NCBI GenBank assembly: GCA_038058285.1
Contig: JBBUBJ010000006.1
Span: 8,683 to 45,982 of the forward strand
Source of the DNA: Patescibacteria group bacterium
GTDB lineage: Bacteria > Patescibacteriota > Minisyncoccia > Phycocordibacterales > WO2-35-19
Direction: 5' to 3'
Length of the DNA: 37,300 bases
Position numbers and translations under genes: made by a program. Below the pieces are notes generated by a model, which saw nothing but the letters and a program-made list of their open reading frames with translations, did no database searches and was not told the DNA's origin. Positions 4,929-37,078 of this stretch are shown here, piece by piece; the stretch's first letter is position 1; every line of letters begins with the position of its first letter.

Positions 4929-4950
4929 TTTTAAATAATATCATACTCGA

Positions 4951-5004
4951 CCCCACCCCGTCCCGCTAAAGCGGGACCGCCCCTCACCTTGCGAAGGTGA
5001 GGGG
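4951..5004 (-). repeat. Family D composite: CCCCACCCC tail, GTCCCGC-TAAA-GCGGGAC hairpin, CCCCTCACCTT-GCG-AAGGTGAGGGG hairpin
   Basis: Two perfect hairpins at 4960-4977 and 4980-5004. The first shares the GCTAAAGC/GCTTTAGC core with family C. Confidence 0.6.
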
Positions 5005-5110: not shown

Positions 5111-5482
5111 ATGCTTACTCGAGCTGCTATGAATCGCAGTTTAGGATTACCGCGTGCCCCTGGATCTTGTTTCGGAGTTTCCGATCCAAGATATTTACGG
5201 CCCAACTTCAACAGAAGTCCGCTTCCGTTGCCACAAGCGACCAACAAAAACAAGGCCACGATTACCACCAGATTTTATATTCTGGAATGGTGGAAGAAAA
5301 ACTTCGAGCCAGAACACAGGTCTTTTAGGGCCAAAAACAATGGCCTGGCTGTCATCAAAGCGATGCGCATTCTCGGCATCAAAGGGAAATTGACTGGTCA
5401 CAAGCTCCGCAAAGCCGGAGCGAGCAGAGTTTCTCTCCTCAGCTTTAGCGATGGGGAGATTTTCCCGGGACCCAAGCAGTGA
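5111..5482 (+). CDS. Hypothetical basic protein (orphan); coding status uncertain
   Basis: GGAGGTG lies 7 nt before the ATG, a promoter lies upstream and a terminator downstream. However, the G+C-rich stretch is open in several frames on both strands and the N-terminal half is low-complexity (R/P/S/L-rich). Confidence 0.35.
   Translation: MLTRAAMNRSLGLPRAPGSCFGVSDPRYLRPNFNRSPLPLPQATNKNKATITTRFYILEWWKKNFEPEHRSFRAKNNGLAVIKAMRILGIKGKLTGHKLRKAGASRVSLLSFSDGEIFPGPKQ
5434..5459 (+). repeat. Family C hairpin (stem TCTCC/GGAGA around AGCTTTAGCGA)
   Basis: TCTCCTC-AGCTTTAGCGA-TGGGGAGA. Same loop as 7349-7374 and 12463-12490 but with a different stem. Confidence 0.5.
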
Positions 5483-5501: not shown

Positions 5502-5536
5502 GCGGGCAGGATTCATTCTTGTCCGCTTTGTTTTTT
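5502..5536 (+). terminator. Rho-independent terminator after 5111..5482
   Basis: Stem GCGGGCAGG / CTTGTCCGC (two G-U pairs), followed by TTTGTTTTTT. Confidence 0.6.
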
Positions 5537-6314
5537 ATTTTTCTCCCTTCCCCTTCGCAAGGGGAAGGGTTGGGGGTGAGGTCGTTTTGTTATTTACCGA
5601 ATTTATATACGCGCAATACTCGCAATTAGGGCTTGCTTTTGGAATTTCGTCGTTGTCCAAACATTTTTTCATATCTATCAAAGTTTTTTCTATCCAGTCG
5701 TCTTTGCCTGTGTAAGGAATAATTTTTATATCAAATTCAAGTTTGCCGTCAAAAGCTTCGCGGTCGCGCTTGCCATTTGCATAAACAAAATAACCGGTAT
5801 CAGAAACATTCAAATCATTATGTCGCAAAAGCCACTGATAAACTTCCATCTGTCTTTTGTAACCGTCTTGCCACTCGGCGTCCAAATTTACTTCTTCGTC
5901 TTTGCTTGTGGCTTTATAATCAACCACCATAAGCTGACCGTCTGGACTTTGCCAAATATCATCAACCGCTCCAAAAACTACAAAATTAGTTGGCTCATGA
6001 AATGTCTCAACACCAACAAAATTTTCTCGCCACTTTTCCATACGCGGATCTTGAAAAGGCACGGCGTCTATCCCGTAAGATTCCATAAGCGGGTGCGGGG
6101 TTTTTTGTTTTCGATGAATATCAAATTCTTTTTTGAGAAGCGTATCAACCGCGCTATTTAAGTTAAAAGGAAATCCCTGTGGTCGTGAGACACCAATTCG
6201 CCTGTCCAAATAAAAACATCGCGGACACTCCACAAACAGGTCAATTTTACTTCGGCTCACTTTGAAAAATTCCTTTGCCTTTGGGTCGTATAATTTTTTT
6301 CTATAAAATGCCAT
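5535..6314 (-). CDS. PD-(D/E)XK nuclease, Cas4/RecB-like with terminal Cys pairs
   Basis: N-terminal CPRC, core VVDYK (D-x-K), C-terminal CEYC. The last 15 codons and the stop lie inside a family D repeat. Confidence 0.7.
   Translation of the reverse strand: MAFYRKKLYDPKAKEFFKVSRSKIDLFVECPRCFYLDRRIGVSRPQGFPFNLNSAVDTLLKKEFDIHRKQKTPHPLMESYGIDAVPFQDPRMEKWRENFVGVETFHEPTNFVVFGAVDDIWQSPDGQLMVVDYKATSKDEEVNLDAEWQDGYKRQMEVYQWLLRHNDLNVSDTGYFVYANGKRDREAFDGKLEFDIKIIPYTGKDDWIEKTLIDMKKCLDNDEIPKASPNCEYCAYINSVNNKTTSPPTLPLAKGKGEK
5545..5581 (+). repeat. Family D hairpin + tail (CCCTTCCCCTT-CGC-AAGGGGAAGGG + TTGGGGGTGAGG)
   Basis: Perfect 11-bp stem at 5545-5555 / 5559-5569. The tail matches 12783-12792 and 29854-29865. 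Confidence 0.75.
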
Positions 6315-6327
6315 TAGAATAATTAGG

Positions 6328-7155
6328 TTAATTAGAAATTAGTTTTATCTCTGCAATCATTTTATCAATCTTATCTTTACTTAAACCTGCCTGAACTAAT
6401 ATATCAGGATTATCAAGTGCTTGTTTGCAGAGGACAATACCAGCCTGCATCAAAAGTTTTTCATCGCTTGGGGTGCTTGAGTTGAGACAAGTGATAGGAT
6501 GCAAATGAGCCTCTTCAATCAAATCTTGCAAATTACCATGTTCCGGATAATTCCAGCCGACCAATTTCATATTTTGGCATTTAGCATATTTAATAGCTGA
6601 TTCAGAAAATTTAGTGTTTGTAATGAGCCATCCTTCGTCAAGCTTGTGCTGGTGGTTGCCAAAATCAAATGCAGTGTTAGCCAAATCATCCCATCTGGCT
6701 TTTATATAAAGAGCAATTTTAAGGTCTGATTTGATGCCGAGCTCGTTATGAAATTTAGCTTCAACAAAAATTAATTTTTGTTCGTTCCATGCGACAATGT
6801 CTATTTCATGTTCGGCGCATTCACCTTTGGCAATAAAATCAGTTGTGGTCTCAAAACCTTTGGCTCTAAAAATTTCAGCCACAAATTGTTCAAAAGGAAA
6901 ACCTGTTGGTCCCATTTCCATTACCGCTCGGCGAAGCGAATATCTAGCTGTCGCCGGGCTTTCCTCTTTTTTCAAAAGTTCAAAAGCATGATTATAAATA
7001 TCTTTAGTACTAGCATTATCTTTAAGTTCTCTTTCTATTTGATCTACTATGTTATCAACCGCTTCTGTGCTAGCTCCTGCCCGTGTTAAAGAATCCCGCA
7101 ACTTCTGCGCATTAAATTCTTCTCTTTCTCCCGTTGCTTTAATTATGTATTTCAT
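6328..7155 (-). CDS. ATP-cone domain fused to an Mrr-like restriction endonuclease domain
   Basis: N-terminus KATGEREEFNAQKLRDSL...IERELKD (ATP-cone pattern). Then FEQFVAEIFRAKGFE...HEIDIVAW...FVEAKFH (D...E-x-K REase core). Its ATG at 7155 overlaps the mnmA TGA stop (ATGA). Confidence 0.65.
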   Translation of the reverse strand: MKYIIKATGEREEFNAQKLRDSLTRAGASTEAVDNIVDQIERELKDNASTKDIYNHAFELLKKEESPATARYSLRRAVMEMGPTGFPFEQFVAEIFRAKGFETTTDFIAKGECAEHEIDIVAWNEQKLIFVEAKFHNELGIKSDLKIALYIKARWDDLANTAFDFGNHQHKLDEGWLITNTKFSESAIKYAKCQNMKLVGWNYPEHGNLQDLIEEAHLHPITCLNSSTPSDEKLLMQAGIVLCKQALDNPDILVQAGLSKDKIDKMIAEIKLISN

Positions 7156-8276
7156 TTTTCTATTATACCACCACCAAGACAAATTTCATTGTCATACAAA
7201 ACCAAAGATTGTCCCGCCGAAACTCCCATTTGTGGTTTGTCAAACTCAACCAACAAGGATGACCCTTGTTGGTTAGGTTTTTGTGGTGTAATTTTGCATG
7301 GAATTTTTTCTTGGCGGTATCTTGTACGACAAAATAATTTTTCTTTAGTCCCGCGAAGCTTTAGCGAAGTGGGATTTATCCAATTTATTTCTGAAATTTC
7401 AAGTGTCAAGGGTCCCCCTTGGCTTTTTGAGTATGGTGTAATTTTGGGAGCGACAGTTATAGTGTTTTTTGAAATGTCTTTAGAAACAACATACAAAGGC
7501 ATTTCATTTTCTGATTTTTTGGTGACAGTGAATCCATGACGTTCGCCTATTGTAAAAAATAAAGCTCCGTTGTGGTGACCTATTTTTTTTCCTTCTAAAT
7601 CCAAAACATCTCCTCTTTTTGTTGGCATATATTGAGCTAAAAATTCTTTCATATCTATTTTACCCAAAAAACAAAGTCCTTGGCTGTCTTTTCTTGTCGC
7701 CTGTGGCAAGCCAAATTTTTCCGCCAACTTTCGTACTTTTGGTTTTTGCAAATGACCTATGGGAAATAAAATATGTTCGAGTTGTTTCTGTGTTAATGTC
7801 CACAAAAAATATGATTGGTCTTTGTTTTTGTCGGCTCCTTCCATTAACCCCACCCTGCCCTCCCCTTGATCAGAGGAGGCAACCGTACGAGCATAATGGC
7901 CAGTAGCAACATATTGAGCGCCATTTTTAAGAGCAAATTTGAGAAAGTGGCCGAATTTTATTTCTTTATTGCACATTACATCAGGATTAGGTGTTCTCCC
8001 TTTTTTATATTCGGCAATCATATAGTCAACCACTTCTTTTTTATATTCTTTTTCCAAGTCAAGAGTAATAAAAGGAATATCCAAAACTGCCGCCACTCTC
8101 ATAGCGCTTCTTCTATCTTCTTTCCAAGTGCAAGGATAACTCGGCGGAGTCCACGCTTTTATAAAAACTCCTGTCACATCATAACTTTCCTTCTTCAGCA
8201 ATGCCGCCGACACAGCGCTATCTACGCCTCCAGAAAGCCCCACATAAACTTTCTTTTTTACTGATTGACTTTTCAT
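7152..8276 (-). CDS. mnmA: tRNA 2-thiouridine(34) synthase MnmA
   Basis: PP-loop SGGVDS, KDQSYFL, TRYRQ and the C-terminal GQS.VLY pattern. Contains family A, B, C and D repeats in-frame. Confidence 0.9.
   Translation of the reverse strand: MKSQSVKKKVYVGLSGGVDSAVSAALLKKESYDVTGVFIKAWTPPSYPCTWKEDRRSAMRVAAVLDIPFITLDLEKEYKKEVVDYMIAEYKKGRTPNPDVMCNKEIKFGHFLKFALKNGAQYVATGHYARTVASSDQGEGRVGLMEGADKNKDQSYFLWTLTQKQLEHILFPIGHLQKPKVRKLAEKFGLPQATRKDSQGLCFLGKIDMKEFLAQYMPTKRGDVLDLEGKKIGHHNGALFFTIGERHGFTVTKKSENEMPLYVVSKDISKNTITVAPKITPYSKSQGGPLTLEISEINWINPTSLKLRGTKEKLFCRTRYRQEKIPCKITPQKPNQQGSSLLVEFDKPQMGVSAGQSLVLYDNEICLGGGIIEK
7248..7295 (+). repeat. Family A hairpin + tail, solo copy inside mnmA
   Basis: AACCAACAAGG-ATGAC-CCTTGTTGGTT + AGGTTTTTGTGGTGTAATTTT. 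Near-identical to 37031-37078. It is 48 nt long and is read on the minus strand as KITPQKPNQQGSSLLV. Confidence 0.85.
7349..7374 (+). repeat. Family C hairpin inside mnmA
   Basis: TCCCGC-GA-AGCTTTAGCGA-A-GTGGGA. Read on the minus strand as PTSLKLRG. Confidence 0.7.
7401..7445 (+). repeat. Family B hairpin + tail inside mnmA
   Basis: AAGTGTCAAGGGTCCCCCTTGGCTTTTTGAGTATGGTGTAATTTT. It is 45 nt long and is read as KITPYSKSQGGPLTL. Near-identical to 12561-12605. Confidence 0.85.
7848..7880 (-). repeat. Family D (short, degenerate) inside mnmA
   Basis: CCCCACCCTGCCCTCCCCTTGATCAGAGGAGGC compared with 14729-14773 (CCCCACCCC...GCCCTCCCCTTGTTCAGGGGAGGG). Read as SDQGEGRVG. Confidence 0.55.
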
Positions 8277-12212: not shown

Positions 12213-14642
12213 TTATACCACAAAATTAACTATTTTATTGAGTACAAAAATAGTCTTTTTTATTTCCTTATCATCAAGCCATTTTTGGACATCTGGCATG
12301 ATTAGCGCTTTTTCTTGGGCTTCTTTTTCGGATATGCCCGTTTCCGCTTCAAACTGAGCCCTCACTTTTCCATTTATTTGAACGACAATAATCACATTTT
12401 CCTCTTTAATTTTTGACTCGTCATATTTTGGCCATTCTTCCAAATGAATTGAAGATTCATTTGCCCCGCATAGCTTTAGCGAAGTGGGGCTGTTCCAAAT
12501 CTCATCCGTCATATGTGGTGCAAAAGGCGCCAGCAATTTCAAAAAAGTTTCAAACATGTCTAGTGTCAAGGGTTCCCCTTGGCTTTTTTGGTGTGGTGTA
12601 ATTTTTTCAAGTTCGTTTAATAAAATCATCATAGCTGAAATAGCAGTATTGAATTTATAATTTTCAATATCTTCTGTTACTTTTTTTATGGTTTTGTGCA
12701 AAAGATTCTCGAGTTTTTTATTACCGACTCCTAACTCCCCCGCCTCGCTCCGCTCGGCACCCCCTCTTAAATTAAGAGGGGGTTTGGGGGTGTTATTCAC
12801 TTTTGCCGCTATCTTCCACACCCTCTCCAAAAATCGGCGAATTCCTACCACTCCTCCCAAATCCCACGGATACTGCCCCGTTTCGTTATATGGTCCTATA
12901 AAAGCCAAATACATTTTGACTGTATCTGATCCGACTTTTTCTACCATTTCATCAGGGTCAACTACATTACCTTTGCTCTTGCTCATCTTTTGTCCGTCTG
13001 GTCCCAAAATAAGAGCTCGATTCATTCTTTTAATAAAAGGCTCTGATTCATTTACCAGTCCCAAATCAAAAAGAGCTTTGTGAAAAAATCTTGAATACAA
13101 AAGATGCATGGTGTTATGTTCAGCTCCGCCGGAATAGCGATTAACCGGCATCCATTTTTTTAGCCTGAGCTTATCGAATGGTTCGTTTTTGTTTTTAGAA
13201 TCGCAGTATCTTAAAAAATACCACGAAGAATCTATAAAAGTATCCATAGTGTCATATTCAGGTTTCCAGCCTTCGCCAAATATTTTCTCTACTCTTTCCC
13301 TCAATTCTTTTGAAGTAGCGATTGGAGATTCGCCTTTGGGTGCAAAATCTTTAACATCTTCAGGCAGAAGCCACGGCAAATTTTCTTTCGGCACAGGATG
13401 CGGCTTTCCTTCCGGATCATAAACTATGGGTATGGGACACCCCCAATATCTCTGGCGCGAAAGCAGCCAGTCCCTCAATTTATATTTTGTTACTTTTTGA
13501 CCAAATTTTTGTAAATCCCAGTCAAGTGTGATTTCTTTTACCGGTAAATTATATTTTTTAGCGAAGTCCATATCTCTTTCGTCATGTGACGGAACCGCCA
13601 TAATTGCTCCCGTGCCATAATTACCCAAAACATAATCAGCCACGAAAACCGGTATCTCCTCCCCATTTGCCGGATTAATCACCTTCACTCCTTTTATTTC
13701 AACCCCCGTTTTTTCTTTCTTTTCATTAGTCCTCTCTATTTCTGTTTTTTGTTTTGTCTGATTTATGTATTTTTGAATTTCTTCTTTGTTTCGGATTTCG
13801 GATTTAGAATTTAGAATTTCTTGCGTGAGCCAAGGATGTTCCGGTGCGACAACAACATAAGTTGCTCCCATTAAAGTATCTGCTCTTGTTGTAAAAACTT
13901 TTATTTTCTCTTTTATTTCGGATTTCGAATTTCGGATTTCGAATTTTAAAACTGTTCCTTCCGACTTCCCAATCCAGTTTTTTTGCGCCGTCTTTATTTC
14001 TTCTGGCCATTTCAAATTATCTAAATCGGAAAGTAGGTCCTCAGCATAATCTGTAATTTTGAAAAACCACTGCTCTAAATCTTTTTGAATAACTTCGGCA
14101 TCGCATCTCTCACACTTCCCCGCCACCACCTGCTCGTTGGCCAGCACCGTATTGCACGACGGGCACCAGTTGACGCTAGCCTTTTTCTTATAAGCCAAAC
14201 CTTTTTCGTAAAGTTTCAAAAACAACCACTGCGTCCATTTATAATATTCCGGGTCGGAAGTGATGACTTTGCGCGACCAGTCAAAGGAATTGCCCATACT
14301 CTGCAGTTGCTTTTCCATGTAGGCAATATTTTCGTAAGTCCACTTGCGCGGGTCCACGCCGTGTTTGATGGCGGCGTTTTCTGCCGGCAATCCGAATGCA
14401 TCAAAACCAATCGGAAACATGACATTGTAACCTTGCATTCTTTTGGTCCGCGCGAAAATATCCGGCACGGCAAAAGCATACCAATGACCTATGTGCAAAT
14501 TGCCCGATGGGTATGGGAACTCTACTAGCGTGTAAAAATTTTCTTTTCCCTTTACTTCATCCTCCGTTTTGTAAAGATTATCTTCCTGCCATTTCTTCTG
14601 CCACTTCTTTTCTATTTCTTTATGATCGTATTTTTCTTGCAT
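12213..14642 (-). CDS. leuS: Leucine--tRNA ligase
   Basis: PYPSGNLHIGH (HIGH motif), KMSKSKGN (KMSKS motif), FTTRADT and the editing domain. Contains family B, C, D and two family E repeats in-frame. Confidence 0.95.
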   Translation of the reverse strand: MQEKYDHKEIEKKWQKKWQEDNLYKTEDEVKGKENFYTLVEFPYPSGNLHIGHWYAFAVPDIFARTKRMQGYNVMFPIGFDAFGLPAENAAIKHGVDPRKWTYENIAYMEKQLQSMGNSFDWSRKVITSDPEYYKWTQWLFLKLYEKGLAYKKKASVNWCPSCNTVLANEQVVAGKCERCDAEVIQKDLEQWFFKITDYAEDLLSDLDNLKWPEEIKTAQKNWIGKSEGTVLKFEIRNSKSEIKEKIKVFTTRADTLMGATYVVVAPEHPWLTQEILNSKSEIRNKEEIQKYINQTKQKTEIERTNEKKEKTGVEIKGVKVINPANGEEIPVFVADYVLGNYGTGAIMAVPSHDERDMDFAKKYNLPVKEITLDWDLQKFGQKVTKYKLRDWLLSRQRYWGCPIPIVYDPEGKPHPVPKENLPWLLPEDVKDFAPKGESPIATSKELRERVEKIFGEGWKPEYDTMDTFIDSSWYFLRYCDSKNKNEPFDKLRLKKWMPVNRYSGGAEHNTMHLLYSRFFHKALFDLGLVNESEPFIKRMNRALILGPDGQKMSKSKGNVVDPDEMVEKVGSDTVKMYLAFIGPYNETGQYPWDLGGVVGIRRFLERVWKIAAKVNNTPKPPLNLRGGAERSEAGELGVGNKKLENLLHKTIKKVTEDIENYKFNTAISAMMILLNELEKITPHQKSQGEPLTLDMFETFLKLLAPFAPHMTDEIWNSPTSLKLCGANESSIHLEEWPKYDESKIKEENVIIVVQINGKVRAQFEAETGISEKEAQEKALIMPDVQKWLDDKEIKKTIFVLNKIVNFVV
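12463..12490 (+). repeat. Family C hairpin inside leuS
   Basis: GCCCCGC-AT-AGCTTTAGCGA-A-GTGGGGC. Read as SPTSLKLCG. Confidence 0.7.
12561..12605 (+). repeat. Family B hairpin + tail inside leuS
   Basis: TAGTGTCAAGGGTTCCCCTTGGCTTTTTTGGTGTGGTGTAATTTT. It is 45 nt long and is read as KITPHQKSQGEPLTL. Confidence 0.85.
12733..12792 (+). repeat. Family D hairpin + tail inside leuS
   Basis: CCCCCTCTTAA-A-TTAAGAGGGGG (12760-12782) plus the TTTGGGGGTG tail, preceded by CCCCCGCCTCGCTCCGCTCGGC. Read as TPKPPLNLRGGAERSEAGE. Confidence 0.7.
13789..13820. repeat. Family E tandem units inside leuS
   Basis: TTTCGGATTTCGGATTTAGAATTTAGAATTTC. Read as EILNSKSEIRN. Confidence 0.7.
13915..13947. repeat. Family E tandem units inside leuS
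   Basis: ATTTCGGATTTCGAATTTCGGATTTCGAATTTT. Read as EIRNSKSEIK. Confidence 0.7.
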
Positions 14643-14677
14643 ATTTTAAATATAACCCATTATACGCTTTTTTTCCA

Positions 14678-14718
14678 GAGGATGACCCTTGAAGAATTTG
14701 CCCCAAAGGGTCATCCTC
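14678..14718. repeat. Family G long hairpin (arms GAGGATGACCCTT / AAGGGTCATCCTC, loop ending TGCCCCA)
   Basis: Perfect 13-bp arms. The arm sequence is related to the family A core GGATGACCCTT. The loop end TGCCCCA-AAGGG is shared with 23151-23205. Confidence 0.7.
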
Positions 14719-14728
14719 AAATTTTTAA

Positions 14729-14773
14729 CCCCACCCCTCGCTTCGCGTAGCCCTCCCCTTGTTCAGGGGAGGG
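14729..14773 (-). repeat. Family D tail + hairpin
   Basis: CCCCACCCC tail, then CTCGCTTCGCGTAG, then stem CCCTCCCCT (14751-14759) / AGGGGAGGG (14765-14773). Confidence 0.7.
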
Positions 14774-14811
14774 AAAAAATCTTGCGGCTCAATCCGGACG
14801 AATTTAGCCGC
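14774..14811 (-). terminator. Probable terminator of the hicB-hicA-14887 operon
   Basis: On the minus strand: GCGGCT...AGCCGC stem (14784-14811) followed by AAGATTTTTT. A second 9-bp hairpin (14812-14841) lies directly upstream. Confidence 0.45.
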
Positions 14812-14846
14812 AACGGCTCAGATGGCAGGAAATGAGCCGTTGAAAA

Positions 14847-14888
14847 ACAAGGATGACCCTTGTACTTGAACAAAGTGTGATGTAATTT
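14847..14888 (+). repeat. Family A, degenerate copy
   Basis: ACAAGGATGACCCTTGT + ACTTGAACAAAGTGTGATGTAATTT. The tail overlaps the TAA stop of 14887..15561. Confidence 0.6.
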
Positions 14889-15561
14889 AAACACTCTCTA
14901 TTATTTTTGTTCTTTCCCAATCAGTGGGAACAATGGCGACAATTCTTTTATTTTCAATATCAATCTGAAAAACCATATCCTTTAATTTCCATCCACGAAT
15001 AACTCCTACCTGTTCAAACTGAGTTTTTAATTCGTTCATTTTATGTTCCGCCTCGTTCATAAGAGTTGCAACATCTTCGTCTGAGTACCCTTTTTCTTTA
15101 AGATTTAAGGTATCTCGTTCAGACCAGCGGATACCGGGTATTCGTTCCATAACAATAATATGTGTTCCTCCTTGTTCTGCTTTGGCAACCGGTTTTGCGG
15201 CGGGTAATCCCATTTGAGCAAGCCGTTCAAGAATTTTATACTCATAAAAATGATCTCCTGATTTACCAACATCTCCTTTGGTAAAATTTACTCGTCTAGC
15301 AACAGTTAAAATTTCTTGATTTTCTGGATTTTTCCAAACAGGTAAATCTTTGACAGCAGTTGGGTCTTCTCGAACTTTTCCCGTTTCATCAACTTTCTTT
15401 TCTCCTGTTTTTATGTTCTTTCCTTCTCTCTCAAAATATCCCGTTGGGTCATCAAGAAATTCTTGAGGCACAAAATTAACAAATTCAGTCTCAACTTCTA
15501 CTTTGGGAATGGGAGTGATTTCTTGAATATTATTTTGTGGATTTGGGGAACTTTCCATCAT
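14887..15561 (-). CDS. Hypothetical protein with weak protein-kinase-like (RIO/Kdo-type) pattern
   Basis: The ORF overlaps the hicA stop by 4 nt. EYKILERLAQMGLPAAKP...HIIVMERIPG resembles the kinase alphaC/hinge, but the catalytic-loop position reads GVIRGWKLKD rather than HGDL..N. Confidence 0.5.
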   Translation of the reverse strand: MMESSPNPQNNIQEITPIPKVEVETEFVNFVPQEFLDDPTGYFEREGKNIKTGEKKVDETGKVREDPTAVKDLPVWKNPENQEILTVARRVNFTKGDVGKSGDHFYEYKILERLAQMGLPAAKPVAKAEQGGTHIIVMERIPGIRWSERDTLNLKEKGYSDEDVATLMNEAEHKMNELKTQFEQVGVIRGWKLKDMVFQIDIENKRIVAIVPTDWERTKIIESV

Positions 15562-18807: not shown

Positions 18808-19797
18808 TTAATTTATTTCGGATTTCGTGCTTCGGATTTCGGATTTATATTCCTCAACTGCTGGCTGATCATAAGGATCCACCCCAAGCAGTTTTGCCAG
18901 TTCTATTGTTGTTGCCATCATAAAAGCCATAAAACTTCCTAGTTCTTTTTCATTTATTTCTGCCATTTCATATTTTATAAAAGGTAGGCCGGCTTTTTGA
19001 TAAGCGTCGGTAACATTTTCAAAAGCAGTTTGATTTATATTATTTTGATTTTCTTTAAGAGATAGAATAAAAATAGTAAATCGGTTTTTAGGTCCGCCCA
19101 AATAAAGTTCCAGCATAGAATGCAAATCTACCGGACCAATGGAAACAGTCGGAGTAATTAAAGAAATACTTTCGGCTATAAGCTGGCGGCACCACTTGCC
19201 CAAATCCTCCAACTCCGAATTAAAAATAAAAAAATCTAAAATATTAAAATCATTTTTGTAATTATCAAAAATATTTCGAGCCAAATGTTTTGTTTCTTCT
19301 TCTTTTATTTCTTTACTCCCAATAATAAAATTTTCTACATCCAAACCGGCGATGGATAAAACAGTAGTGTGAGCAACAGTAAAAGCGCTAAATCGTCCGC
19401 CAGTATTTCCTTCCCATTCTATTTTTTCAGCCTCTTTTTCTTCAGCTATTTTCCAAAGTGTAGAATTGGGAGTTGATATTATAAGTATTCTTTCATTTAT
19501 AGTGTCAAAGGGCATCTTTGACATTATTTCAAAAATTTTATTAAAAGTTTCCAAAGTTTCTGCTGTTTCGCCAGATTTACTCACAACAATCAAAACAAAA
19601 TCTTCCAACTTTTTTATTTCGTTTTCTACTATATTTTCTATTTCCTCATATTCTCGCTCATCTGGCGATTCTAAAAAATATATTTTCTTGTCTGTTTTTT
19701 TGTGCAGAGTTATAGCATCCCAAACCGCTTTGCTTGCCAAATCGGAACCGCCTATGCCTATTACAAAAATGTATTTTGATTTTTTAAATTTTTCCAT
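18808..19797 (-). CDS. pgi: Glucose-6-phosphate isomerase-like SIS protein (short type)
   Basis: IFVIGIGGSDLASKAV and SKSGETAET motifs. I prefer the ATG at 19797 because the ORF-track extension runs through a terminator. The C-terminal KSEIRSTKSEIN comes from a family E repeat. Confidence 0.65.
   Translation of the reverse strand: MEKFKKSKYIFVIGIGGSDLASKAVWDAITLHKKTDKKIYFLESPDEREYEEIENIVENEIKKLEDFVLIVVSKSGETAETLETFNKIFEIMSKMPFDTINERILIISTPNSTLWKIAEEKEAEKIEWEGNTGGRFSAFTVAHTTVLSIAGLDVENFIIGSKEIKEEETKHLARNIFDNYKNDFNILDFFIFNSELEDLGKWCRQLIAESISLITPTVSIGPVDLHSMLELYLGGPKNRFTIFILSLKENQNNINQTAFENVTDAYQKAGLPFIKYEMAEINEKELGSFMAFMMATTIELAKLLGVDPYDQPAVEEYKSEIRSTKSEIN
18815..18846. repeat. Family E tandem units at the pgi 3' end
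   Basis: ATTTCGGATTTCGTGCTTCGGATTTCGGATTT. It supplies the last codons before the pgi stop (18808-18810). Confidence 0.7.
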
Positions 19798-29786: not shown

Positions 29787-29865
29787 TCACCCTACCCTCT
29801 CTTACAACAAGAGAGGGTTTCTGAAACCCCCTTCCCTTGTTAAGGGAAGGGGGTTGGGGGATGAG
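29787..29865. repeat. Inverted pair of family D elements between dnaX and ddl
   Basis: Left element: CTCACCCTA + CCCTCTCTT-ACAAC-AAGAGAGGG (29795-29817). Right element: CCCCCTTCCCTT-GTT-AAGGGAAGGGGG (29827-29853) + TTGGGGGATGAG. The tails point outward. Confidence 0.75.
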
Positions 29866-30971: not shown

Positions 30972-31058
30972 GTTACGCAAAAAAGCGTCAGATGGATTGT
31001 AGCAAAATTATAATGATTTAACCATTAGTGTTTTCTAATCCTAGAATGATACTGAGGT

Positions 31059-31646
31059 CTATTGCGCTAACGCAGCCGCCACATTTACCAATCCATATCC
31101 ATATTGGTTGTCGCGACTAGCAGTTCCCAACTCTTGGGCAGTGGAGTTCATTATTGCTCTTACTTCGTCATTAATGCGTCTGTTGAGGTTAGTATCTCTA
31201 ACCCCCGTTGCTATAACAAGTGCCGCAACACCTGCGACATGAGGCGAGGCCATTGAAGTGCCGGAACCGTATTTGTAGCAACCGCCATCCGAGCGATTGC
31301 ATTTCGGTTGTGGAGTAGAGTAACTGGTATTATCGTTCCATGTTGAATATACAGACACCCCTGGTGCTACCAGTTCCACCTTGGGACCGGTGCTTGAGAA
31401 GCTTGCGCGTTTATTGGTAGAATCAATGGCGCCAACGGCAATCACTGAATCAAATTTTGCCGGATAAATAACATTGTCTCCCGTGCCTGCGCCGATGCGC
31501 TTCACACCCCATGAATTATCAAGTTCAGCATCAGTGGCATATACAGTATCATCAAGGTCAATAGAGGCAACATGCGGATTGCGAGACAATCCCTCAATAG
31601 CTTTAGCTGGTATCGTAGCGGCGATAGCGTCCACAATTTTTTTCAT
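31059..31646 (-). pseudogene. Subtilisin-like (S8) protease remnant lacking the Asp/His part of the catalytic core
   Basis: It keeps the end of an I9-type propeptide (AIEGLSRNPHVASIDLDDTVYA), WGVKRIGA, the VIAVGA..D....RASFSS.GP..E..APG block and GTSMASPHVAG. The D-T-G and H-G-T-H regions between them are absent. There is no signal peptide and no SD. Confidence 0.6.
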
Positions 31647-31664
31647 AGAATTAATCTTTATTAT

Positions 31665-32372
31665 TTAATAATTATCTGCCACAAATCTCTTACCTTTAAA
31701 AAGTAGCCACAACGCGCCCACTAAAATTACCAGTTCGGACCAAAAGTCCCATTGGAACCACCATTGGCTAAGCAGTTCTATTCTGGTAAATCTGGAATAA
31801 TATCCCCCGGTCGGGTCTATGTTAAAGAATAAAAACGAGAAATGTCCAAGCATTAAAAACGCCGTAAATATTACTCCGCCGATTAGTATAAGCTTATAGC
31901 TTCTTGATATTTGCGGGGCTGACTTTGTCAGAAACAAGATGCCAAACAACAAAGCTAAAACTGTTGTATCCGTACTGTGAACATTAAGAAAGTCCCATAA
32001 AAGTTGTGGCCAAACATGAATGTTGCCGGTTCCAAGAGGAAGTTCAAAACTCTTCATTCCAAAAACAGAATATCCGTCTTTGTATGGTAGCCAAATCTCC
32101 TGAACAACAATCATTGTTATTATAATCAGAAAAAGAAAAGCTCCCGCTAAAATCCATTTCCAATTCGTGTCTCTTTTCAAATTCAAGCTTGGCCTGAATA
32201 TTTCGTATGCCAAGCCGGCAAGAATAACAAGAAAGCCAATCCACGGAGGACCGTAACTTATTGACGGAACATCTCCCAAATTTATTTTCGTCCATGTAGG
32301 CATCCAAAGTAATAGCAATAAAACTATCACAAAGAAAATAAACGCAAAAATACGATTTGAAGCATTGCTCAT
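31665..32372 (-). CDS. Multi-pass membrane protein (6-7 helices)
   Basis: 235-aa ORF dominated by hydrophobic helices and rich in Trp/Phe. Confidence 0.7.
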   Translation of the reverse strand: MSNASNRIFAFIFFVIVLLLLLWMPTWTKINLGDVPSISYGPPWIGFLVILAGLAYEIFRPSLNLKRDTNWKWILAGAFLFLIIITMIVVQEIWLPYKDGYSVFGMKSFELPLGTGNIHVWPQLLWDFLNVHSTDTTVLALLFGILFLTKSAPQISRSYKLILIGGVIFTAFLMLGHFSFLFFNIDPTGGYYSRFTRIELLSQWWFQWDFWSELVILVGALWLLFKGKRFVADNY

Positions 32373-32504
32373 ATTTTTTAATTATATCAAAATTTGATAT
32401 ACTATGTCCACCAAATTTGATTTATAGACGAAGGTTGATTTTCTTTTTATTTTGCAGTACTGTAATCTTAGATTCAAAAAATCCTTAATCAATGGAGGTG
32501 CGCA

Positions 32505-36317: not shown

Positions 36318-36321
36318 AATT

Positions 36322-36372
36322 AATCAAACCAACAAAGATGACCTTTGTGGTTTGATTAGTGTGGTATAATTT
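36322..36372 (+). repeat. Family A hairpin + tail, left flank of transposase-like gene
   Basis: AATCAAACCAACAAAG-ATGAC-CTTTGTGGTTTGATT + AGTGTGGTATAATTTT. The stem carries a compensatory A-T pair where other copies have G-C. Confidence 0.8.
36362..36370 (+). promoter_or_regulatory. Extended -10 box TGGTATAAT formed by the repeat tail, 6 nt before ATG 36377
   Basis: TGGTATAAT-TTTGAT-ATG. No SD is possible. Confidence 0.5.
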
Positions 36373-36376
36373 TGAT

Positions 36377-37027
36377 ATGAAAAATAGGGATTATAAAAAT
36401 TTTGCTAAGGGAGAAATTTATCATGTTTATAATAGAGGGGTGAATAAAGCAGATATTTTTAAGACTCAGAAAGATTATGAGGTTTTTCTATCCCGTTTAA
36501 AAGAAAATTTATTTCCTGAATTTGTAGATAAAAAGAAATTATCTTGGTTGGAAAAACGCAGAAAATTACTTCCCCCAAACTCTTTTGATTTAATATGTTA
36601 TTGTCTTATGCCGAATCATTTTCATTTACTTATTCAACAAAAAACAGATTTACCCATAACCAAATTAATATCTAAAATATGTACAAGTTATGCAATATGT
36701 TTTAACAAAAAACATGGGAGAGTTGGGGCGGTTTTTCAGGACCAATTTAAGGCTGTATTAGTTGAAAACAATGAACAACTTTTATGGACATCTTATTATA
36801 TTCATAAAAACCCAACAGAAGCAGATATTGTAATAAATCTCAAAGATTATAAATGGGGCAGCTATTCGGAATATTTTGATAAGGAAAATAGTTTTAAATT
36901 ATGTAAAAAAGATATTATTACTAAACAGTTTAATTCCGAAAAGCAATATTTAAAGTATTTTGATGATAAAGAAAATGATGAAATGACTTCTTTGAGAGAT
37001 TTTTATTTTGATTTTAGCGAGGATTAA
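36377..37027 (+). CDS. IS200/IS605-family Y1 (HUH) transposase-like protein, RAYT-like (copy 2)
   Basis: GEIYHVYNRGVNK, HUH motif MPNHFHLL, YIHKNP with Tyr. I prefer the ATG at 36377 because the GTG at 36359 in the ORF track lies inside the repeat. Confidence 0.8.
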   Translation: MKNRDYKNFAKGEIYHVYNRGVNKADIFKTQKDYEVFLSRLKENLFPEFVDKKKLSWLEKRRKLLPPNSFDLICYCLMPNHFHLLIQQKTDLPITKLISKICTSYAICFNKKHGRVGAVFQDQFKAVLVENNEQLLWTSYYIHKNPTEADIVINLKDYKWGSYSEYFDKENSFKLCKKDIITKQFNSEKQYLKYFDDKENDEMTSLRDFYFDFSED

Positions 37028-37030
37028 CAA

Positions 37031-37078
37031 AACCAACAAGGATGACCCTTGTTGGTTGGCTAAGTGTGGTGTAATTTT
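37031..37078 (+). repeat. Family A hairpin + tail, right flank of transposase-like gene
   Basis: AACCAACAAGG-ATGAC-CCTTGTTGGTT + GGCTAAGTGTGGTGTAATTTT, starting 4 nt after the stop codon. Confidence 0.85.

Follow-up and report, generated by a model that had tools for sequence, protein, structure and literature searches.

The mnmA gene of a Patescibacteria group bacterium is a mosaic that hosts copies of four short repeat families within its reading frame. These copies probably stem from a selfish module resembling repetitive extragenic palindromic (REP) sequences and from two other mini-elements, which selection has retained in loops of the protein that tolerate them. The gene (7152..8276, minus strand) encodes a tRNA 2-thiouridine synthase as an intact 374-aa open reading frame (ORF). 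It lies in a 37,300-nt stretch of contig JBBUBJ010000006.1 (assembly GCA_038058285.1, positions 8,683 to 45,982), hereafter the window, in whose numbering all coordinates are given. Families A and B represent a single REP-like module with two hairpin subtypes, and A copies flank a gene resembling those of the REP-associated tyrosine transposases (RAYTs). Families C and D are separate dispersed elements with no known transposase.

Four repeat families in one gene

A first-pass annotation, made from the sequence alone, had described mnmA as a mosaic of four repeat families. This was confirmed, as each family recurs in the window. The peptides it named for A (KITPQKPNQQGSSLLV), C (PTSLKLRG), B (KITPYSKSQGGPLTL) and D (SDQGEGRVG) are exact minus-strand translations, and A, C and B are indeed packed within 200 nt, with a span of 198 nt (7248-7445).

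The family A module (7243..7295) lies on the plus strand, antisense to mnmA, and is read as KITPQKPNQQGSSLLV, residues 328-343. It consists of an 11-bp hairpin, AACCAACAAGG-ATGAC-CCTTGTTGGTT, a spacer and the tail TGTGGTGTAATTTT. As DNA it folds at -11.3 kcal/mol (z -3.3), and its plus strand is terminator-like. The same is true of the plus strand of the family B module (7388..7445, core 7403-7445), which is likewise antisense to the gene and is read as KITPYSKSQGGPLTL, residues 278-292; it contains the hairpin GTCAAGGG-TCC-CCCTTGGC, a T-run and the tail TATGGTGTAATTTT. The family C element (7341..7383, plus strand) has the core CCCGCGAAGCTTTAGCGAAGTGGG at 7350-7373, shows weak folding only and is read as NPTSLKLRGT, with PTSLKLRG forming residues 302-309. 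The short family D copy (7841..7880, plus strand, repeat match 7846-7879) is made of the box AACCCCACCC and a decayed hairpin, CCCTCCCCTTGATCAGAGGAGG. It is read as SSDQGEGRVGL, in which SDQGEGRVG is residues 135-143.

Elsewhere in the window, family A is found at 14837-14889, 36321-36373 and 37026-37078 and family B at 12548-12605 in leuS, all on the plus strand. Family C has a second copy in leuS at 12456-12498 and a partial one at 5441-5465, and a full, intergenic family D copy (14727..14774, plus strand) shows the box, a spacer and a perfect 9-bp hairpin. Chance is excluded as the origin of these repeats, since the counts in the window lie far above expectation: 7 matches to the shared A/B tail (0.56 expected), 2 to the C core (0.00 expected), 3 to the D hairpin (0.00 expected), and 29 perfect hairpins with a stem of at least 8 bp, compared to 4.4 in shuffles. 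A fixed-spacing pattern for family D found no match in the window because the spacer varies in length, and separate patterns for box and hairpin did match. With its gathering threshold, Rfam annotated just two tRNAs across the window; none of the repeats matched a known RNA family.

The product has the full set of three Pfam MnmA domains, namely HUP, PRC-barrel and C-terminal barrel, and matches the crystallised MnmA proteins of the PDB with an E value of about 1e-93. Residues S15-S20 (the PP-loop SGGVDS), D99, C102 and C202 are invariant across 119 orthologs. An AlphaFold (AF2) model was built from the alignment of these orthologs; an earlier model from 27 sequences (mean predicted local distance difference test, pLDDT, 66) was not used. 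The model reached a pLDDT of 87.5 and a predicted template modelling score (pTM) of 0.86, with a template modelling (TM) score of 0.84 to the crystal structures 2hma and 2det. Leaving aside the N-terminus (1-10, pLDDT 71) and residues 191-210 (75 and 69), confidence is lowest in the 10-residue blocks that coincide with the four elements. Block 131-140 (pLDDT 68) covers D, at the turn of a hairpin with strands 128-133 and 142-146. The lowest value, 60, falls on block 281-290, which holds B in the linker (278-290) from the PRC barrel to the C-terminal barrel. Element C (block 301-310, pLDDT 61) is a short helix or loop between barrel strands, and A (block 331-340, pLDDT 81) is in the loop 332-340 of the hairpin 325-331/341-345. 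The first-pass annotation had asked if the peptides form hairpins that substitute for native strands. In the model they are surface segments, two in hairpin loops, one in an inter-domain linker and one in a connection between strands, and they include part of the flanking strands. We infer that MnmA is functional and that the four peptides are probably tolerated decorations.

Turnover at five sites among MnmA orthologs

The 119 orthologs, proteins of about 370 aa that are 59-76% identical, gave an alignment of 865 columns in which variation is concentrated at five sites. Four of the five are occupied in this genome's mnmA. Site 1, after ATGHYAR, holds 7-50 residues (15 here, D in antisense). 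Site 2 follows RGDVL, has 7 residues in 106/119 orthologs and is empty here; it is longer in 10 orthologs (15-27 residues, six of them at +10 codons). Site 3 is the inter-domain linker, with a median of 13 and up to 53 residues (14 here, B). The remaining two lie in the C-terminal barrel: site 4 typically has 8-11 residues, with 14 in seven orthologs (14 here, C), and site 5 has 8 or 12, with 14-25 in 17 orthologs (17 here, A).

Codon alignments showed that the occupants of these sites in orthologs are the same DNA elements. At site 1, some orthologs are empty, and others carry an unrelated 15-bp palindrome or D, which is found in either orientation and also in a third reading; ortholog P0106 has nearly identical D DNA at the D site of mnmA, with a perfect stem. 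Several orthologs hold family C at site 2 in the opposite orientation, so that C is found in both orientations in MnmA, and in P0018 and P0030 a clean +10-codon insertion was confirmed in the DNA. Site 3 is filled by the A/B module in at least 18 orthologs, by an HFGRPSKML-type sequence in about 20, or by longer elements. The HFGRPSKML-type sequence would back-translate to a palindrome, as judged at the protein level. A/B modules of several hairpin subtypes are found at site 5 in at least nine orthologs, and one distant MnmA has a B-type copy where the gene studied here has A. Recurrent peptides in orthologs at site 3 and the C-terminus (ARKKIANGKVWPSDSEETRGLFQEQFFSG, NAFQKVLGSPLQSST, HFGRPSKML and a C-terminal DSTSSL extension) suggest that orthologs host further element families, absent from the window.

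On a neighbor-joining tree from 276 conserved columns, built without bootstrap, carriers of an element are as scattered as random labels; for example, seven carriers need seven changes. This argues for repeated gain, loss or replacement and not for one ancestral event. Inside the modules, synonymous sites are conserved compared to the rest of the gene (9/9 vs 51%, 8/9 vs 35% and 9/10 vs 56%). The presence, family and orientation of elements thus vary among orthologs at the same sites, which supports a mobile origin of the mosaic.

One alternative is that nothing here is mobile, and that native, conserved MnmA peptides show coincidental similarity to other loci or that the repeats are assembly chimeras. 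The total length of the protein, near that of E. coli and S. pneumoniae MnmA, is in keeping with this. Yet the peptides are absent or different in most of the 119 orthologs, and the DNA similarity to other loci is real and far beyond chance. As for chimeras, nine members of a 99%-identity cluster (record names Hain_H41/H43 and one NCBI Patescibacteria metagenome-assembled genome, MAG) were compared, and these variants from several independent assemblies of different samples retain all four elements. We regard this alternative as refuted, and its probability as negligible.

The first-pass annotation also proposed that the repeats seem to take the place of native strand-turn-strand segments instead of adding loops, because the C-terminal barrel segments they occupy are almost as long as in E. 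coli MnmA. As stated, this was not borne out. Compared to the element-free ortholog P0032 (350 aa), the protein has gained 8 residues with D, 0 with B, 6 with C and 5 with A, which account for 19 of its 24 extra residues, and it is longer than S. pneumoniae MnmA at each of the four sites. The near-equal length to the E. coli and S. pneumoniae proteins is therefore coincidental. Part of the claim stands: the B site is length-neutral, net gains are below element length, and the peptides occupy the turn, and some of the adjoining strand sequence, of native hairpins or linkers. Since the gain never reaches the element length and site 3 did not grow at all, some native residues were lost too, either by later trimming or as part of the insertion mechanism.

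Elements are also in frame in leuS. The family B module (12548..12605, plus strand) is read as KITPHQKSQGEPLTL and adds 8 aa compared to four of the five orthologs examined. The family C element (12456..12498, plus strand), read as SPTSLKLCGA, adds 7 aa; ortholog L054 has the full, clean insertion of +10 codons in its LeuRS, as P0018 and P0030 have at site 2 of mnmA. A D-like, GC-rich element (12723..12790, minus strand), which has an 11-bp hairpin and a GGGGGTG box, is in frame as well and adds 8 to 15 aa. At the B site of leuS, the "empty" alleles of L054 and L058 hold perfect hairpins of 8 and 11 bp (TGTCAAAG...CTTTGACA type). These hairpins, TGTCAAAGGTCGCCTTTGACA and GTGTCAAAGACGGTCTTTGACAC, encode SKxxFD and adjoin a tail-like ACACACCA stretch; they may represent an earlier and more compact form of module, or else selection for structure in the coding sequence. 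In addition, the LeuRS of L054, L055 and L059, encoded upstream of mnmA, are 964-989 aa long and have a Pfam NUDIX domain inserted after the editing domain, which is absent from the LeuRS of the window (809 aa) and from those of L057 and L058.

Sibling strains with 99.8% identity show 35 differences over 18 kb, six of which fall within a 43-nt stretch at the A copy of mnmA. This patch of six substitutions (7269-7311), seen against L060, L062, L063 and L064 (strains 99.2-99.8% identical), lies at the A copy and just beyond it. It alters MnmA residues 323, 326 and 334 and breaks one stem pair in the siblings, whose variant spacer resembles another A copy. The patch fits ongoing conversion or turnover, and supports the earlier suggestion of recent mobility or gene conversion of A. 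Together with the hairpins in the "empty" leuS alleles, it keeps a replacement mechanism viable. When sibling genomes free of the elements were sought, all 99%-identical strains proved to carry them, the next relatives being at most 76% identical. Apparent indels between strains coincide with exact 100-nt alignment breaks followed by 55-nt duplicated overlaps; they were read as scaffold joins, with the sequence unchecked, and set aside.

These observations could also be explained by recombination instead of transposition. Ectopic conversion, template switching or horizontal segment exchange would overwrite loops that already resemble the module, with the RAYT as a bystander. The length-neutral B site and net gains below element length are expected from such a process, as are the six differences in 43 nt with a spacer like that of another A copy, the related hairpins already held by the "empty" leuS alleles, and the scatter of element states on the tree. 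However, at 26-53 nt the modules offer little length for homologous recombination to be efficient, and clean +10-codon insertions are found at sites without prior similarity. Recombination also leaves unexplained the recurrent RAYT linkage and the co-variation of hairpin subtypes described below. We consider it unlikely.

A hairpin module linked to a RAYT-like transposase gene

The A/B module consists of a hairpin with a CAAGG/CCTTG core, 8-13 nt, and then the conserved tail TGTGGTGTAATTT (also written GTGTGGTGTAATTT). The stem is 11 bp in A and 8 bp in B. In the window, the modules are always on the plus strand and are all single units, without doublets, and 3/6 copies are inside genes. DNA-fold z values range from -2.8 to -5.6 for three A copies and the B copy of mnmA; the B copy of leuS is weaker (z -1.3). 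Covariation was measured over 34 distinct copies, at stem positions outside the fixed core. These positions were paired in 83.5% of cases compared to 71.8% in shuffles, and the covariation score was 0.319 vs 0.109, a value that none of 500 shuffles reached. Two stem positions show 15 double changes each, and the first outer position shows all four Watson-Crick pairs. The structure of the module is therefore under selection.

A pattern scan for this architecture in 185,579 species-representative genomes returned 52 stretches. About 43 of these are in Patescibacteria MAGs, among them Paceibacterota, Nomura-, Yonath-, Vogel- and Zambryskibacteria as well as some with a Saccharibacteria label. Nine hits fell outside Patescibacteria and were discounted as unrelated: one is from Winogradskyella and eight are from Clostridia-class MAGs (labelled Clostridia, Lachnospiraceae, Eubacteriales and Acutalibacteraceae), several of which resemble an ordinary hairpin followed by a TTGCGA...TATAAT promoter. 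The flanks of 56 module copies contain no GTAG/CTAC or CGTC tag; the conserved part is the 3' tail. Family C is about 30 nt long and weakly structured, and family D combines the box CCCCACCC with a GC-rich hairpin.

The A copies were said to flank a transposase-like gene. This proved correct, and the gene (36377..37027, plus strand, 216 aa) could be characterised further as that of a RAYT-like Y1/HUH tyrosine transposase. The HUH motif is at H81-F-H83 and the putative catalytic tyrosine is Y141, in YIHKNP; both the HUH motif and the tyrosine of YIHxNP are invariant in the family. Pfam Y1_Tnp matches the protein with an E value of 9e-10. Its sole NCBIfam hit is REP_Tyr_transpos, with 49 bits, below the cutoff of 80. 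A direct phmmer search of the PDB gave no match, and the family profile gave one weak hit there, E. coli TnpA-REP 4er8 (E 0.25). The protein has 3987 homologs, and all named ones among the 120 listed are Zambryskibacteria, Paceibacterota or Patescibacteria; some are named RayT by JGI. Many homologs are on very short contigs, which suggests repeat-induced assembly breaks.

Two A copies bracket the gene in direct orientation. The copy directly upstream (36321..36373, plus strand; -12.7 kcal/mol, z -5.6) has the tail TGTGGTATAAT, a perfect extended -10 that ends 6 nt before the RAYT ATG, suggesting that the transposase mRNA is leaderless. The copy at the stop codon (37026..37078, plus strand) has the same hairpin and tail as the mnmA copy. 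The mnmA module had been called near-identical to both flanking copies. This holds for the right-hand one, which is 87% identical overall, including the whole 27-nt hairpin and 14-nt tail, but the left-hand copy is only 62% identical (ungapped), with its stem kept by a compensatory change from CAAGG/CCTTG to CAAAG/CTTTG.

The pairing of module and RAYT is also found at five other Patescibacteria MAG loci (L002, L011, L013, L024 and L043). Within a genome, the hairpin subtype is uniform and is the one flanking the resident RAYT, as in the 13 copies of H52-bin079. Such a genome-specific subtype matched to the flanking RAYT is a REP-RAYT signature. In our own count over the scan copies, TATAAT is present in 4/4 copies immediately upstream of a RAYT compared to 6/45 others (Fisher p about 0.001), and 39/45 others have TGTAAT. 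The tail was also considered as a working internal promoter; this was rejected, since the second base of the -10 hexamer, a critical one, is G in dispersed copies. An intein or intron was rejected too, as no such signature was found and the elements are translated.

In the mechanism we favor, the A/B copies that bracket the RAYT-type Y1/HUH gene would be master copies. By analogy with REP/RAYT and IS200/IS605 systems, the transposase would recognise hairpin and tail as single-stranded DNA and mobilise solo modules in trans. About 90% of such small genomes is coding, so many insertions would land in genes. The survivors would be those in frame and free of stops that encode a hydrophilic peptide in a surface turn or linker, and A/B survivors would also have to lie antisense, as a hairpin and T-run in sense would terminate the mRNA. 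This filter would give rise to the recurrent hot spots. Trimming of the loop after insertion may then bring net growth down to 0-8 residues, below element length, and the enzyme would stay functional.

Several results weigh against this mechanism. The strain comparison caught no transposition event, and no presence/absence polymorphism of modules was found over three 18-kb sibling loci that are 99.2-99.8% identical. The NCBIfam score of the transposase falls short of the RAYT cutoff, and solved RAYT structures match it only weakly. The modules lack a GTAG/CGTC tag, are single units instead of REPINs (inverted REP doublets) and have the same orientation on both sides of the gene, and families C and D are without an associated enzyme. 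Due to the length-neutral B site and gains below element length, simple insertion needs an extra trimming step. Finally, the perfect hairpins at the B site of two "empty" leuS orthologs suggest that some sites may be old and repeatedly rewritten.

A more speculative explanation, to which we give a small chance, is that the modules are swappable cassettes. The HUH transposase would cut the resident and incoming modules at the same positions and exchange them, so that, in a transposase-driven replacement process, protein loops and linkers would be rewritten time and again at fixed sites and with constant length; the hairpin and tail of a colonised loop would, with the same small chance, serve as a landing pad. 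Antisense copies would possibly be co-opted as terminators embedded in coding sequence. If true, this would explain the length-neutral B site, the different hairpin subtypes at one site among orthologs, the hairpins in the "empty" leuS alleles and the substitution patch at the A copy.

Modules are in frame in other genomes of the candidate phyla radiation (CPR), in ArgRS, Dus, UvrA (L039), RNase HII and MnmA. The Dus module is at the same site in two genomes, and the RNase HII module is at different sites in two genomes. Of ten verified genic copies, nine run antisense to the gene that hosts them. In the segments listed for sites 3 and 5 of the 119 MnmA orthologs, solely the antisense (KITP-type) reading was seen. 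The hairpin and T-run on the antisense strand score as an intrinsic terminator. Sense insertions were presumably lost since they would terminate the mRNA. The peptides may contribute to the orientation bias as well: the sense frames are hydrophobic and rich in W, C and F, and the common antisense frame is hydrophilic (KITPHQKSQGEPLT).

Another possible explanation for the genic modules is a domesticated function, in which A/B modules are kept as embedded terminators of antisense transcription in an AT-rich genome or as mRNA or single-stranded DNA structures that tune translation at domain boundaries. Terminator-like sequence on the antisense strand only, an orientation that is almost always antisense, the synonymous-site conservation and the stem covariation would all be expected. 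The B copy is exactly at a domain boundary, and the TGTAAT of dispersed copies, in place of TATAAT, is a disarmed -10. However, selection against sense-strand terminators gives the same orientation bias without any function, and many orthologs do well with empty sites or unrelated elements. The scatter of carriers on the tree also argues against domestication, as do the poor folding of C and D in mnmA and their presence in both orientations. We find it rather unlikely, and retain filtered insertion of a selfish module as the probable origin.

Relation to known systems and other repeats in the window

Palindromic repeats in frame within genes were reportedly found in Rickettsia by Ogata et al., and the classical Rickettsia palindromic element RPE-1 is roughly 100-150 bp long, adding tens of residues. 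Like the RPEs, the elements described here are short palindromic repeats in frame in functional housekeeping genes, with several families per genome, a reduced, gene-dense host, and peptides at protein positions that tolerate them. Unlike RPE-1, they measure 26-53 nt, for a net 0-8 residues. They also come from another phylum and have other sequences, the two groups being compared by description. The in-frame location of RPEs is cited in PMC3733652. For CGTC-type REPs, including RPE-4 and RPE-6, no dedicated transposase is reported there, whereas the A/B module is physically linked to a RAYT-like gene.

Similar to IS200/IS605 elements and palindrome-associated transposable elements (PATEs), the Y1 gene of the window has same-strand subterminal hairpins at both ends, without terminal inverted repeats or target duplications. 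The left end of IS200 is a hairpin combined with the transposase promoter, and the left-end A copy also pairs its hairpin with a promoter-like tail for the transposase. Unlike in IS200/IS605, both ends are the same module, and dispersed copies are single hairpins instead of pairs of left and right ends. By a weak profile match, the 216-aa protein groups with RAYTs and not with the TnpA of IS608 or ISDra2.

REP/RAYT systems (REPtrons, REPINs) are well described (PMC2817692, PMC3116915, PMC3479197). As in these systems, a small hairpin repeat with genome-specific subtypes has copies flanking a single Y1/HUH transposase gene, and compensatory changes preserve its stem. Among protein families and PDB structures alike, the protein matches RAYTs best, the NCBIfam score being sub-cutoff and the PDB match weak. 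The A/B module differs in that a conserved 13-nt 3' tail resembling an extended -10 takes the place of GTAG/CGTC at the hairpin foot. Its single units in place of inverted doublets, direct-orientation flanks and many intragenic copies are further differences, as is the score of the protein below the curated RAYT cutoff. Classical REPs are extragenic, have more than 100 copies per genome and form REPIN doublets; in the 37-kb window, half of the copies are genic and doublets are absent.

Intragenic GTAG/CGTC REPs have been found in genes for known proteins, notably of replication and repair, such as uvrA, and were interpreted as neutral decorations (Di Nocera et al. 2013, PMC3733652). The gene uvrA is also hit by the A/B module, in L039. 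Unlike those REPs, the module is of a different repeat super-family and belongs to a phylum outside that survey; moreover, four elements of three kinds share one 1.1-kb gene, with hot-spot turnover across 119 orthologs. In the literature library searched, no paper connected Patescibacteria with RAYT or REP elements. Our findings extend the concept of selfish DNA inside genes, known from Rickettsia RPEs and intragenic REPs, to a new element family and to a new phylum, the CPR/Patescibacteria, here represented by an ultra-small groundwater bacterium. Much of the puzzling length variation in conserved proteins of this phylum can stem from short mobile repeats, not from lineage-specific functional insertions. 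One of these repeat families is linked to a large RAYT-like family (about 4000 homologs, with all those named among the 120 listed in CPR groups). The elements show which loop positions of essential enzymes are permissive. They can also mislead alignment, phylogeny and structure prediction, and probably fragment metagenome assemblies. A hairpin-plus-tail module with its putative cognate enzyme offers a compact model for REP-like mobilisation, the mechanism of which is unsettled even in E. coli.

The window contains further repeats. Looser relatives of family D are at 55-101, 4949-5004, 5545-5585, 12723-12790 and 29794-29855. The intergenic one at 4949..5004 (plus strand) has a box, an inner hairpin and an 11-bp hairpin. 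The one at 5545..5585 (minus strand) supplies the C-terminal codons of a PD-(D/E)XK nuclease ORF, which runs through a D-type hairpin at 5535-5585 (...SPPTLPLAKGKGEK) and takes its C-terminus and stop codon from the repeat. The two hairpins at 29794-29855 were considered as genic and rejected; they lie within an ORF extension upstream of the real ddl start and are thus intergenic. The 244-nt spacer upstream of leuS (14643-14886) is nearly all repeats, comprising a long-loop hairpin (GAGGATGACCCTT...AAGGGTCATCCTC), the full D copy and an A copy. This A copy (14837..14889, plus strand) sits in the repeat cluster that separates the start of LeuRS (14642) from the ORF 14887..15561, whose 3' end its final 3 nt overlap.

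A fifth repeat family is a 7-nt tandem unit, ATTTCGG/ATTTCGA, with about 4.6 copies at 13789-13820, 13915-13946 and 18815-18846. Two of these arrays are translated in LeuRS, as ...EIRNSKSEIKE... and ...LNSKSEIRNKEE..., where T. thermophilus LeuRS is gapped. The cumulative GC skew has its minimum at about 31000-32500, where genes change from a largely minus-strand to a largely plus-strand arrangement. A replication origin may lie here; the window showed no dnaA. At 31059-32372, there are two adjacent minus-strand ORFs (195 and 235 aa), and the C-terminal half of Peptidase_S8 matches the downstream one only. The pair may represent a split or frameshifted subtilase.

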